Assembly: GCA_026195275.1 (NCBI GenBank)
Contig: JAPHQU010000004.1
Span: forward strand, 3,119 to 67,118
Reading direction: 5' to 3'
DNA: 64,000 nucleotides
Origin: Minisyncoccota bacterium
GTDB taxonomy: Bacteria > Patescibacteriota > Minisyncoccia > Phycocordibacterales > JABMNX01
Each line of letters begins with the position of its first letter. Within the stretch, counting starts at the first letter, position 1. Below are positions 53,819-58,347 of this stretch, one piece after another. The position numbers were made by a program, and so were the translations under genes. The notes beneath the pieces are model-generated. The model did no database searches. It worked only from the letters and a program-made list of their open reading frames with translations, and was not told the origin of the DNA.

Positions 53819-54955
53819 GCATAGGGTCCATAAAGAGGGAACCGCACCCTGTTTGTAGGACGCGGCACCAGTTTGCTTCGCTTCAGGTGGCTTCTTGTGA
53901 TTCTCTAAGAATTTCTTTCGCTTGCTTTAGTGTTGTGAGTCCTCCTGAAAGAACCCCACCATCTCACAAGACGGAAGTGTCTTTCTTTAGAGAGTGTTAT
54001 GTAGACTGCGCCTCCCTTGAATGCCATGAAGCTGGTGCACGGTATATTCTAAGGGTCCGAATACTCAGGAATAGCACGGTGTCAGCTGGGTTGTTGACTC
54101 AAAAACCCGCCTCGTGTATACTGCTGTCTACGTGATTATGAGTATTGATTTGAAGAACACCAACAAGCGGGGGCGCTAGCCGGGGCATCGACTCATGACT
54201 AACGCAGCCGCGATCTCGCGGTTTTTTTCTTGCCTTCACTCATAACTGACATCACGAGAACTTTGACAACGTCATAGGATCCATCTGGTCGGAGAGACTA
54301 GGCGGATCCGCAGGTAAAAACAAACCAAGACTAAAACTAAATGTTTACGTGCCGCTGTAAGCAAGCGGCACACACGAGTGTGGCTATGGTTATACTCGTG
54401 TAGCGGTTTTTAGATTTCCTGATAGGAGATCTAAGAGCGTGTGGTGGATACCTAGACTGAAAAAGGCGATGAAGGACGTGGCATGTCTGCGATAAGCTTC
54501 GGTAAGGTGACTAGCAACCTTTGACCCGGAGATTTCCGAATGGGGGAACCCGGCCGACTCTGTCGGTCACCTTTCTACTTGATAGAAGGGAGCGCACCCG
54601 GGGAAGTGAAACATCTCAGTACCCGGAGGAGAAGAAACCAATAGGAATTCCCGTAGTAGCGGCGAGCGAACTGGGACGAGCCCAAACTCGATTTCACCTC
54701 TACCATCTGTGTTTACACAGGTGCTAGAGGTGGTATCGGGGGTTGTAAGGCAACAATGTCATTTTTTCGAAAATGAGAAAAGTTACAAATTGTAATGTTA
54801 ATGGAAGCTTCTGGGAAGAAGCACCCAAGAGGGTAACAGTCCCGTACATGAAAACATATACAACTTTTTTGTTGTTGTCCTTGAGTAGCTCAAGACACGA
54901 ATAGCTTGAGTGAATCTGCCAGAACTAACTGGTAAGGCTAAATACTTTTTCAGAT

Positions 54956-54994
<39 letters not shown>

Positions 54995-56235
54995 GTCCGG
55001 TGAGGACAGTGAAATAGACTTGAAACCACATGCTTACAAGGAGTCAGAGCGGTCGCAAGACCGTCATGGCGTGCCTATTGAAGAATGAGCCAACGAGTTC
55101 ATATATGTTGCAGGCTAAGCCCTTATCGGGTGGAGTCACAGGGAAACCGAGTGTGAATAGCGCGAACCATTATGTAGCATGTATGAGACCCGAAGCTCGG
55201 TGAGCTTGCCATGGGCAGGGTGAAGTTTGTGGAAACACAGATGGAGGCCCGAACCGGGAGGTCGTTCAACGCCTTCGGATGACCTGTGGTAAGAAGTGAA
55301 AAGCTAATCGAACCGAGTAATAGCTGGTTCTCTCCGAAATAGCTTTAGGGTTAGCGTCGTGTGTTCCTGTTGGGGGTAGAGCACTGGCAGGTGTGAATAG
55401 GGGGAAACCTCGTCATTCCTATCAAACTCCGAATACCAACAGTTAATAGCGCGGCAGTTAGAGTCAGGGGGCTAAGCTCCTGTGCTCAAAAGGGAAACAG
55501 CCCAGATCCCAAGTTAAGGTCCCAAAATTCACGTTAAGTGCACTTAAGGAGGTGAGATTTCTCAGACAATGAGGAGGTTGGCTTAGAGGCAGCCATCCTT
55601 TAAAGATAGCGTAACAGCTCACTCATTCAGAGATTTCGCGCCGCAAATGATCGGGGCTAAACGTGATACCGAAACTGGGGGCTTTCCATTCATTCGTGAA
55701 TGGGGAGCGGTAGGAGAGCGTTCTGTTCTGCGATGAAGCCGAAGGGATAACCCACGGTGGAGCGTTCAGAAGTGAGAATGTTGGCACGAGTAACCGCATG
55801 GCATGTGAGAATCATGCCCGCCGAAAGATCAAGGTTTCCTTCGCGATGTAGATCAGCGAAGGGTTAGTCGGGCCTAAGCCGATCCCGAAGGGGGGAGGCG
55901 ATGGACACATGGTTAATATTCCATGACTTTACGAATATGCGATGGGATGACGGAGGGTTGTACTCTGAGCGCATTATTGGATTTGCGTTGGTGCTGTGAG
56001 GGGGTCTCTTAGGGAAATCCGGGAGACACCACCCCAAGCAGAGCGAAAATGGTGCGGTTTCGGCCAATCCAAATTCAGAGGAGCACGCTTCCAAGAAAAG
56101 TCTCTAAGCTTCAGTATTCGTAAAACCGTACCCCAAACCAACACAGGTGATCAGGTCGAGAAGACCAAGGCGAACAAGTGAGTCTTCCTCAAGGAACTCG
56201 GCAAAACAGCGACCGTAACTTCGGAATAAGGTCTG

Positions 56236-56335
56236 CCTGTGCAGCCAATAGAGGAGTTCATGAAGAAAACAAAAGATGAGACATGTCATATATGTATGCA
56301 TATACATGACAACGGGTGCAAGTGTTCGATCGAGA
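56236..56335 (+). other. Expansion segment in a 23S variable helix, closed by a perfect 14-bp helix (CAGCCAATAGAGGA/TCCTCTATTGGCTG)
   Basis: About 85 extra nt relative to E. coli between ...CUUCGG.AGAAGG... and ...ACUGUUUA.CAAAAACACAG. Contains internal palindromes. Confidence 0.5.
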
Positions 56336-56517
56336 GATCGAATCCTCTATTGGCTGCGTAGGCCGCAGCTAAAGAGCCCTGGCGACTGTTTACCAAAAAC
56401 ACAGCTCCCTGCGAACTCGTAAGAGGATGTATAGGGGGTGACGCCTGACCAATGCCAGAAGGTTAAGCACGGATGGTGTGATGAGTTTACTTGTCATGCT
56501 GGGCTGTGTAAGCCCTG

Positions 56518-56564
<47 letters not shown>

Positions 56565-57215
56565 AGTCCAGTAATTTTGGACGTGCACGAATGGTGTAAC
56601 GACTGGGGCACTGTCTCGAGGAAGAGCTTGGTGAAAATGCAATGGCGGTGAAGATGCCGCCTACCTGCAGCTAGACGAAAAGACCCCAGGAGCTTTACTA
56701 CAGCTTGATATTGGGGGTGTGAGTTGACTGCGTAGCATAGATGGGAGACTTTGAAGCGGACCTTTCGGGGATCGTGGAGTCGCCAGTGAAATACCATCCT
56801 TTCAATTTGCATTCTCTAACCTGAACGGAAAAAACGTGTAGGGACAGTATCTGGTGGGTAGTTTGAGTGGGGCGCTCTCCTCCTAAAAAGTAACGGAGGA
56901 GTCTATTAAGGTCCTCTAGGCGCGAATGGAAACCGTGCCGATAGTGTAAAGGCAAAAGAGGGCTTGACTGCAAGGGGTACATCCCGAGCAGGCGCGAAAG
57001 CGGAGCTTAGTGAACCGAGAGTTTCCTTTAGACGGAGCTCGAGATTAACGGATAAAAGTTACCCTGGGGATAACAGGCTGGTATTGCCCAAGAGTCCATA
57101 TCGACGGCAATGTTCGGCACCTCGATGTCGGCTCACCTTATCCTGGGGCTGGAGAAGGTCCCAAGGGTTTGACTGTTCGTCAATTAAAAAGGTACGCGAG
57201 CTGGGTTCAGACCGT

Positions 57216-57526
57216 TGAGAAGTTGAATTTATTTGACTTCTCAACAGTCTGAGTCCACTCTAACGACACAAAATCGAAGTCTTTTCGTTTATTCAATGAG
57301 AATTAATCAATCTAATCACGGCGGCTGGGTGTTTTCGTAACACCTAGTAAAGCTGACTTATATCGGTAAAACCCGAACCCATTCAGGGAGGGCAATACCG
57401 AGGAAACCCCGCACTTGCATGCAAGTGAAGGGGGTCCGTAGAGACTGAACGTCAGTTATCTGCACACTGTAATGGTGTGTCAGTTAAAGCTACAGTCCAA
57501 TGCACGAAGTAATTCGTGAGAACATG
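57216..57526 (+). other. Probable ORF-less group I intron in 23S rRNA domain V (near E. coli positions ~2593-2597)
   Basis: Conserved 23S sequence GGGUUCAGACCGU | ... | CGUGAGACAGGUUGGUC is interrupted by ~311 nt. The insert follows a U, ends in G, starts with a 10-bp P1-like hairpin (GTTGAGAAGT/ACTTCTCAAC), has AGACUG...CAGUCC (P7-like) and a terminal hairpin CACGAAgtaaTTCGTG (P9-like). Confidence 0.55.
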
Positions 57527-57667
57527 CGTGAGACAGGTTGGTCTTAATCTGCTGTGGGCGTCGATCTTTGAGAGGAGTTGTTCCTAGTACGAGAGGACCG
57601 GAATGAACTGACCTCTGGTGTATCGGCTGTCGCGCCAGCGGCACTGCCGAGTAGCTATGTCGGGAAT

Positions 57668-57700
<33 letters not shown>

Positions 57701-57882
57701 AACCTCAAGATAAGAGATCATAGACCCCTAGGAGATGACTAGGTGATAGGCTCTCGGTGTACGCACAGTAATGTGTTTAGCCAAGGAGTACTAATTCGTC
57801 GTACTCCTGTTAGGAAATCTGAAAATCGCTGTAAACAAAAAGTTTGTTTTTACCAACTCAAGTATTCAATGATGGGTGTTTG

Positions 57883-58053
57883 GGGCCGTAGCTCAGAAAG
57901 GTCACACGCTGTTTCTCAGTTCTTTTGGATTGATTTACTCCATGAGCTGCCAACTTAAGGGGTGGGTCAGGAACACGCGTGTGTCGCGAGAGAGCATCTC
58001 GTCTTGGGAAGGTCGCAGGTTCAAATCCTGCCGGCTCCACCAACTTTCTATCA
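57883..58053 (+). tRNA. Disrupted or intron-containing tRNA-like gene: canonical 5' end and 3' T-arm/acceptor end separated by ~100 nt
   Basis: 5' end GGGGCCGUAGCUCAG. 3' end GCAGG-UUCAAAU-CCUGC-CGGCUCC-A-CCA, complementary to the 5' acceptor. No contiguous D/anticodon arms could be folded. Confidence 0.4.
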
Positions 58054-58236: not shown

Positions 58237-58347
58237 GTTCTGGTGATTAATCGCTGAGGAACCACCTGTTCTCATTCCGAACACAGAAGTTAAGCTCAGT
58301 AGAGGCGATGATACTCTTTGATGGGGAAAGTAGCTAGTCGCCAGAAC
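58237..58347 (+). rRNA. rrf: 5S ribosomal RNA
   Basis: CCGAACACAGAAGUUAAGCUC (loop C/helix III) and GGGGAAAGUAGCUAGUCGCCAG. Helix I is extended by a 20-bp precursor stem (58224..58243 pairs with 58341..58360). Confidence 0.85.

Follow-up and report, generated by a model that had tools for sequence, protein, structure and literature searches.

Position 2593 of 23S ribosomal RNA (rRNA; Escherichia coli numbering, site L2593) is a published location of group I introns. Introns that carry LAGLIDADG genes and the P7.1 and P7.2 helices have been described at this site in chloroplasts and cyanobacteria (Haugen et al. 2007, PMC1995217). In the Candidate Phyla Radiation (CPR) the same position is the 23S hotspot "23IS12", with LAGLIDADG-bearing forms and forms lacking an open reading frame (ORF), and the counts for CPR 23S group I introns are 222 ORF-less and 211 ORF-bearing (Tsurumaki et al. 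2024, PMC11270868). Here we describe a 311-nucleotide (nt) insertion at the same site in a 64,000-nt stretch of contig JAPHQU010000004.1, hereafter the window, in the 23S rRNA gene of a probable member of the Patescibacteria (CPR). The insertion, at positions 57216-57526, is very probably an ORF-less group I intron that is most likely removed by its own guanosine-initiated reaction. The first-pass annotation of this DNA had called an ORF-less group I intron in the peptidyl-transferase region of 23S rRNA and considered rRNA introns a known trait of CPR bacteria, and both statements agree with the evidence below. Its suggestion that the locus might represent a new insertion site or intron class does not hold, because L2593 has already been published (PMC1995217; PMC11270868). 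The intron is one more ORF-less copy at a known CPR hotspot, ordinary for a CPR genome. Current views are unchanged by it, and its wider interest is limited to a conserved helix formed by the 5' exon and the beginning of the intron.

Insertion site, relatives and group I core

The Rfam model LSU_rRNA_bacteria matches the window at 54421-57813 with 2403 bits and is covered from end to end (positions 1-2925); hence the 23S sequence around the insertion is an intact full-length match. The Rfam alignment leaves approximately 313 nt unaligned at model positions ~2622-2624, in the GGGUUCAGACCGU / CGUGAGACAG region, and when the gene is aligned to E. coli rrlH with MAFFT, the 311 inserted nt fall exactly after U2593. 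This site belongs to helix 93, in the peptidyl-transferase region, and lies one base pair below its loop. The junctions read ...GACCGU (57215) / UGAG...CAUG (57526) / CGUGAGACAG, with a U preceding the insert and a G ending it. The boundaries are unambiguous and cannot slide, because U differs from G on the left and U differs from C on the right. The first-pass annotation had the coordinates and the terminal nucleotides right, and the hotspot that it named is indeed a published one; its range of ~2593-2597 is replaced by the single site L2593. It had also argued that the insert is too short for a homing endonuclease and that the 23S gene model must be spliced. Consistently, no ORF longer than 35 amino acids (aa) overlaps the insert, the longest one touching it being 35 aa, and the alignment gives the exon join (54421-57215 with 57527-57813) that is needed before 23S phylogeny or structure mapping. 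A tblastn search over the 64-kb window found no LAGLIDADG gene and no endonuclease remnant. Domains IV-V of this 23S rRNA share 80-88.6% identity with Patescibacteria loci, UBA2100 (L048) being the best match, and 72-75% with Acidimicrobiia, Chloroflexota and E. coli.

For independent evidence, one genome per species was scanned for 23S genes in which the base after U2593 is other than C. The scan returned 120 loci (L002-L121), of which 87 have an insert of 150-1200 nt exactly at L2593. Two families were distinguished. Family A (25 loci) occurs in Acidimicrobiia, Omnitrophota, some Patescibacteria and one metagenome-assembled genome (MAG) of Deltaproteobacteria; in this family 8-11 nt separate the guide sequence from the 5' splice site, and P7.1/P7.2 hairpins stand between P7 and the 3' strand of P3 (P3'). 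Family B comprises about 58 loci, and its named hosts are all Patescibacteria except for L076, labelled Gammaproteobacteria. A covariance model, R1, was built from 22 cores of L2593 introns of family B with the window sequence left out. It matches the window once, at 57312-57534, with 152 bits (E 2e-37). This score is in the middle of the family B span of 124-188 bits, and the window intron ranks 20th among the matches when the window and 99 loci are searched together. Based on sequence, namely the R1 score and the 5' module at 57216-57256 that is described below, the window intron is a member of family B.

Family A corresponds to the I-CreI-type, IA3-like L2593 introns (Cr.LSU and those of Synechococcus C9, S. 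lividus C1 and Thermosynechococcus; PMC1995217). The window intron shares with them insertion after U2593, a homologous P3-P9 core, the motifs CCCGUAGAGACU and UAUAGUCC, and the position of the guide directly before P2, GNRA-capped in that family; R1 gives 69-78 bits on ORF-less family A copies. Another common feature is the presence of I-CreI homologues in L6 of relatives from family B, with a C-terminus that overlaps P7. I-CreI itself is the product of the Chlamydomonas chloroplast 23S intron at L2593. The window intron differs in having no endonuclease gene in L6, no P7.1/P7.2, where family A copies and the related intron L027 have two hairpins, and a P1 loop of about 100 nt that holds a module not seen in family A; in family B this module measures 50-280 nt. 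P7.1/P7.2 were looked for and are absent, given that AAC is all that separates P7 from P3', and therefore the window intron is not strictly IA3-like. An IC3-like reading suggested by the motif GUAGAGACUA was dropped, as family A, with P7.1/P7.2, has the same core. As for 23IS12, the window intron has the same gene, position and host group and is likewise group-I-like by Rfam E-value, and the available text of the survey differs in containing no secondary structures, no split into two families, no distal guide and no exon clamp (PMC11270868).

The group I model RF00028, proposed as a check by the first-pass annotation, matches 57266-57519 over its full length (1-253) with 41.5 bits (E 3e-9 for a 551-nt stretch, 3.5e-7 for the full window). 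The structure worked out from the window intron was mapped onto an alignment of 37 relatives, where 85.5% of cells are paired, compared to 72.6% after shuffling (none of 500 shuffles was as high) and 33-44% when the partner strand is slid. Double changes were observed at 35 pairs, including pairs in P3 (6 of 7), P5 (3/3), P6 (2/3), P7, P8 (5/5), P9 (5/6) and P9.0 (2/2). P7 is paired in 100% of these sequences, its last pair being A-U in 25 and G-C in 12 of them, and its columns G57441-C57498, bulged A57442 and G57443-C57497 are invariant (37/37). By analogy, we infer that G57443-C57497 is the guanosine-binding pair. P4 is conserved and 96% paired, and P9.0 is A-U in 24 and U-A in eight sequences. 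The P2 hairpin is only 27% paired on the MAFFT alignment owing to a register shift and was instead folded in each sequence separately; a hairpin directly 3' of the guide was found in all but one of 45 relatives (the exception is L107, where segment extraction failed). The fold z-score is -6.6, and this value, like the E values of RF00028 and R1, lies far outside chance expectation. All positions invariant in the family are intact in the window copy. The first-pass annotation had named the lack of a covariance-model match and of a P3/P4/P6/P7 core as an argument against a group I intron. A match, although below the Rfam gathering score, and a core supported by covariation are present, and the intron reading is not refuted on these grounds. 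Two pairings picked out by the first-pass annotation fall into this core, AGACUG...CAGUCC as P7 (57442-57447 with 57493-57498) and CACGAA-GUAA-UUCGUG as the P9 hairpin.

Table 1. Features of the host 23S rRNA gene and of the L2593 intron (window coordinates)
Feature	Position	Strand	Description and basis
23S rRNA gene (host)	54421-57813	+	Exons 54421-57215 and 57527-57813; Rfam LSU_rRNA_bacteria and E. coli rrlH alignment
Group I intron (very probable), ORF-less, 311 nt, site L2593	57216-57526	+	LSU alignment, RF00028, family model
5' exon, last 13 nt (G2581-U2593)	57203-57215	+	57203-57211 pair with the intron clamp; CCGU (57212-57215) pairs with the linker or with guide GCGG
3' exon, first 5 nt (C2594-A2598, CGUGA)	57527-57531	+	Guide partner in P10; pairing counts, RNAalifold
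Hairpin 1	57216-57243	+	Called a P1-like hairpin in the first-pass annotation; stem from intron nt 1, U57216-A57243; minimum free energy (MFE) fold
Linker ACAG	57244-57247	+	A57244 opposite U57215, C57245 opposite G57214, A57246 mismatched with C57213, G57247-C57212
Exon clamp UCUGAGUCC	57248-57256	+	Pairs with exon 57203-57211 (G2581-A2589)
Remaining L1 (enlarged P1 loop)	57257-57315	+	Small hairpin CGAA...UUCG at 57275-57287, A-rich stretch, AAUCAAUCUAA before the guide
Internal guide UCACG/GCGG	57316-57324	+	57321-57324 with CCGU (P1, assigned); 57316-57320 with CGUGA (P10, assigned)
P2 hairpin	57325-57347	+	9 bp, loop UUCGU
P3	57351-57357 / 57451-57457	+	Encloses P4, P5, P6 and the 5' strand of P7 (region 57351-57457)
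P4	57363-57367 / 57397-57401	+	Paired and conserved in 37 sequences
P5	57372-57374 / 57390-57392	+	Covariation; P5a at 57378-57380 / 57386-57388
P6	57402-57404 / 57435-57437	+	Covariation; extensions reach the palindromic tip 57412-57427
P7 pseudoknot helix	57441-57498	+	G57441-C57498, bulged A57442, G57443-C57497 through G57447-C57493
J7/3 AAC	57448-57450	+	Sole spacer between P7 and P3'
P8	57458-57485	+	Covariation in 5/5 pairs
J8/7	57486-57492	+	Between P8 and the 3' strand of P7
P9.0	A57500-U57525, U57501-A57524	+	Covariation
P9	57503-57508 / 57513-57518	+	GUAA tetraloop 57509-57512; covariation
Terminal guanosine G57526	57526	+	Last intron base

Guide sequence and the 5' exon-intron helix

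The internal guide UCACG/GCGG is the exact complement of the ligated exon junction CCGU/CGUGA, with a G57321·U57215 wobble at the splice site. It is located approximately 100 nt from the 5' splice site and is followed by P2, J2/3 and P3 in canonical order. The guide motif CACGGCGG is near-invariant in 58 relatives, at distances of 12-278 nt from the 5' splice site. P10 is 94.5% paired in the 37-sequence alignment and was recovered by RNAalifold unprompted. In L027, a related intron that has no 5' module, the identical GGCGG is placed 12 nt from the splice site and forms part of a short P1 hairpin of the textbook type. In family A the exon AACGU is accompanied by the guide GCGU in 24 of 24 loci, and one intron of this family (L072), residing in an ACCGU host, carries GCGGU; family B hosts, all with ACCGU, carry GCGG. 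Exon A2590 is thus matched by guide U and exon C2590 by guide G, so that the guide base covaries with the exon across families. Based on the conservation of the guide, the pairing of P10, the compact P1 of L027 and the covariation at exon 2590, we assign P1 to 57212-57215 with 57321-57324 and P10 to 57316-57320 with 57527-57531.

With these assignments, a conventional splicing route can be proposed. The guide portion GCGG would bind the exon CCGU with the G·U wobble at the splice site, forming P1. An exogenous guanosine would dock at the P7 pair G57443-C57497, and cleavage would follow U57215. The guide portion UCACG would hold the 3' exon CGUGA in P10, and the terminal G57526, set by P9.0, would then enter the guanosine site, with ligation of the exons and restoration of helix 93. 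For CPR bacteria, rRNA insertions have been reported to be absent from transcripts (cited in PMC11270868).

The large P1 loop is due to a 5' module found in 53 of 58 family B members. The module consists of the first 4-8 intron bases, paired with those immediately ahead of the linker, the linker itself, of 4 nt, and a clamp with the consensus UCUGARYCC that is complementary to exon G2581-A2589. In the MFE fold of the window copy, hairpin 1, linker and clamp form with exon G2581-U2593 a continuous helix of approximately 24 bp (57203-57256), in which the opening hairpin including exon bases occupies 57214-57227 and 57232-57245. Pairs of this helix were counted in the 46 relatives with a 4-nt linker, and 89% are paired, compared to 17-48% when the strands are slid. 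The clamp pairs are ~100% paired, and covariation with the partner base is seen at intron nt 1 and nt 2. Of 53 relatives, 24 have ACAG as the linker. U2593 faces A in 41 of the 46 sequences and G in five, G2592 faces C in 44 and U in two, and C2591 is mostly mismatched. In all four hosts with the exon substitution C2586U (L006, L021, L054 and L069) the clamp has a compensatory G to A change, that is, exon and intron covary. The tip of hairpin 1 is variable in the relatives and can take large inserts, and the remainder of L1 contains the semi-conserved motifs UUUCGUYU and CAAUCA-AUCAC.

The conserved pairing suggests that the 5' module may function as an exon clamp or a splice-site switch. The intron would then encode a second exon-binding site, making 9-10 bp with 23S G2581-A2589/C2590 and keeping hold of the 5' exon. 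The linker bases A and C opposite U2593 and G2592 would stand in for the 3' strand of helix 93 and thereby sequester the 5' splice site. The guide, from about 100 nt downstream, would invade the internal loop, so that only CCGU moves from the linker (closed state, U-A) to the guide (open state, U·G). The resulting three-helix junction or pseudoknot around P1 could serve as a folding or timing switch for splicing in the peptidyl-transferase centre. We speculate, with considerable doubt, that the module is an undescribed accessory of group I introns that combines a second exon-binding site with splice-site sequestration or switching, and that it defines a Patescibacteria-specific lineage that arose from I-CreI-type introns when P7.1/P7.2 were lost. 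A functional module of this kind would offer a natural example of a group I intron that recognises its exon in two parts and switches its splice site, and might help to explain how a splice site is located within the most structured portion of the rRNA in organisms that have few assembly factors.

The P(-1) helix of the Tetrahymena intron is made of exon sequence alone. The window module resembles Tetrahymena P(-1)/P1 in having a helix that competes with P1 for the bases of the 5' splice site, and engineered trans-splicing ribozymes with extended guides in that pairing beyond P1 strengthens the hold on the substrate (e.g. PMC3895272 and PMC6155759). The engineered extensions pair 3' of the splice site, whereas the competitor and clamp of the window intron are part of the intron itself and contact the 5' exon on the upstream side of P1. 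The likeness is a resemblance only, without common membership. A description of the 5' module was not found in the available parts of PMC11270868, PMC1995217, PMC3984707 and PMC13011429. Some short family B introns (L006, L074, L102 and L070) have, after the clamp, the sequence GGUU(N)AAGAC, an internal mimic of exon GGGUUCAGAC. Pairing of this mimic, GGUUAAGAC, with the clamp in place of the exon is a possible third state of the module. The candidate pairings of the clamp with the 5' strand of P7 and with this exon mimic are not conserved in the window copy.

Weighing of alternative explanations

Several observations weigh against a fully competent group I intron with the proposed P1. The RF00028 match does not reach the curated gathering score of 50 bits, and for this reason a default Rfam scan is silent on the intron. 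Among eight family B loci at the same site, four pass (50.3-56.3 bits) and four fall below the gathering score; therefore the family as a whole sits on the Rfam threshold, and standard gathering thresholds overlook the window intron and about half of its relatives. The CPR survey used E-value cut-offs for its group I calls (PMC11270868). In the window copy, the L2 loop is UUCGU in place of the GNRA tetraloop found in 31 of 45 relatives, P3 holds a G·U pair and P8 a U·U pair, so that the ribozyme could be weaker or assisted by a protein. P1 spans only four exon base pairs. The exons hardly vary, and the exon-intron pairings consequently rest on few independent changes, namely one position in the clamp (four loci) and one in P1 (one family A locus together with the contrast between families). 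Finally, when only nested pairs are allowed, the closed 5' helix has an energy of -55.9 kcal/mol, compared to -38.3 kcal/mol with P1 forced. This model is blind to clamp and P1 forming together, because their combination is a pseudoknot. The clamp (exon 2581-2589) and P1 (2590-2593) are adjacent and do not overlap, and both could coexist in a junction or pseudoknot.

The missing GNRA loop and the low Rfam score, which is lower than those of several relatives, would also suit a decaying or helper-dependent intron that has lost its endonuclease or maturase gene together with the L2 contact, and that needs a protein or resides in a non-functional rRNA copy. The lack of an intron ORF, and of any LAGLIDADG gene in the 64-kb window, points in the same direction, and a LAGLIDADG maturase is known to assist a Thermotoga 23S intron (cited in PMC3984707). 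We nevertheless consider this improbable, as the family-invariant positions are all retained, the R1 score is typical of the family, the flanking 23S sequence is intact over its full length, and about half of CPR 23S group I introns are ORF-less by the published counts (PMC11270868). A different objection concerns the assignment of P1, as the opening hairpin with ACAG-UCUGAG could itself be the functional P1, with cleavage at the U-A pair and UCACGGCGG having a later role or none. This helix has high stability and appears in the predicted folds of all relatives, and the pairs beside the splice site (U2593-A and G2592-C) are kept in 46 of 46 sequences. The first-pass annotation had described a 10-bp P1-like hairpin that includes the last two exon nucleotides, and such a hairpin is real and conserved; its identification as the guide-bearing P1 fails, because in 41 of 46 sequences the splice-site U faces an A and not the G of the P1-defining G·U pair. 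Moreover, no P10 with the 3' exon can be formed by this strand. The near-invariant UCACGGCGG exactly complements the joined exons, with a G·U, and leads directly into P2. In the homologous family A and in L027 the guide occupies the same position within a short, ordinary P1, and such a hairpin is absent. The guide base opposite exon 2590 covaries as well. The hairpin is therefore very unlikely to be the functional P1.

Least plausible of all, to the point of being hardly credible, is that the insert is no intron at all. It could be an intervening sequence cut at the 5' helix by an RNase III-type activity without ligation, leaving the 23S rRNA in fragments, or an expansion segment that stays in the ribosome. 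The nearly perfect helix of ~24 bp at 57203-57256 is a plausible RNase III substrate, and short non-intron insertions cleaved by RNase III do exist in bacterial and CPR 23S rRNA (PMC11270868). However, no stem joins the two ends of the insert; the 5' end is engaged with the exon and in pairs inside the first 41 nt, and P9.0 and the terminal G make up the 3' end. The insertion lies in helix 93, at the peptidyl-transferase centre, rather than in helix 9, 25 or 45. The core, the guide for both exons, P9.0 and the terminal G, which are relevant only to splicing and ligation, are conserved with covariation. A retained segment of 311 nt beside A2602 would, as judged from the known ribosome structure, be incompatible with ribosome function. 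None of these explanations is favoured, and the ORF-less group I intron with a distal guide remains our preferred interpretation, in which self-splicing is what we infer from the core and the guide.

Mobility of the family and neighbouring RNA genes

Among the 120 genome loci, no close copy of the window intron was found; only patches of 35-41 nt exceed 90% identity, and the L1 region is 75% identical to that of L051 over 84 nt. Two family B introns, L047 and L085, contain ORFs of 173 and 150 aa in L6, whose C-terminus ...PVETK is encoded by the P6'/P7 sequence CCC GUA GAG ACU AAA. The encoded proteins are single-motif LAGLIDADG_1 (Pfam PF00961) members, with homology to I-CreI, I-MsoI and I-CvuI (E ~1e-20). 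We interpret the window copy most readily as an ORF-less representative of a lineage spread by homing endonucleases. A metagenome scan with the pattern ATCACGGCGGCTGGGTG returned 120 loci (L122-L241) that are chance matches in GC-rich coding DNA, none with an intron core, and thus yielded no near relative of the window copy.

Additional group I introns were observed at other 23S sites in L007 (853-1046), L074 (3621-3900) and L081 (5915-6122). With the L2593 family model, the intron in L007 reaches 106.7 bits, suggesting that a second site has been colonised by the same intron lineage. About 20 MAGs labelled "Candidatus Saccharibacteria" bear L2593 introns (e.g. L004, L006, L007, L010, L013 and L021), and several MAGs with this label have more than one 23S intron. 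According to the 2024 CPR survey, Saccharibacteria rRNA genes have no insertions (PMC11270868); the mismatch may reflect loose MAG labels or a real difference between the data sets. A palindrome of 16 nt, CACTTGCATGCAAGTG (57412-57427), caps P6 of the window intron and also caps P2 of an unrelated copy, L050; either chance or a small mobile hairpin could account for this.

The same 23S gene contains two more insertions relative to E. coli, at 54696-54787 (92 nt, after position 281) and 56243-56311 (69 nt, after position 1714). No Rfam family matches either of them at the thresholds used, and they are probably expansion or intervening segments. The window includes a 5S gene at 58239-58346 and no 16S gene over its 64 kb.

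Between the 23S gene and the tRNA-Pro and 5S genes there is a tRNA-Ala-like gene of 161 nt (57882-58042, + strand). It has an acceptor stem with G3:U70, followed by A73 and an encoded CCA, and a normal D stem and T arm. A 3-nt loop (UCUCG-UCU-UGGGA) stands in place of the 7-nt anticodon loop, and the D-loop contains a structured insert of ~80-94 nt with the long stem CACACGC...GCGUGUG. The gene was not called by a default ARAGORN run. In Rfam it scores 36.9 bits with tRNA and 30.2 bits with transfer-messenger RNA (tmRNA; E 2e-8, gathering score of 47 not reached), and it differs from the normal tRNA-Ala(UGC) of L022 only in the anticodon loop and the D-loop insert. The product could be tmRNA-like, another alanine-accepting tRNA-like RNA, or a disabled tRNA. 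In two Patescibacteria, ARAGORN reports a "tRNA-???" with a two-base anticodon (tt) beside the rRNA genes, at 5332-5407 in L048, between 23S and 5S and with an Rfam tRNA score of 60.8 bits, and at 4892-4968 in L022. The anticodon loops of both genes are unusual.

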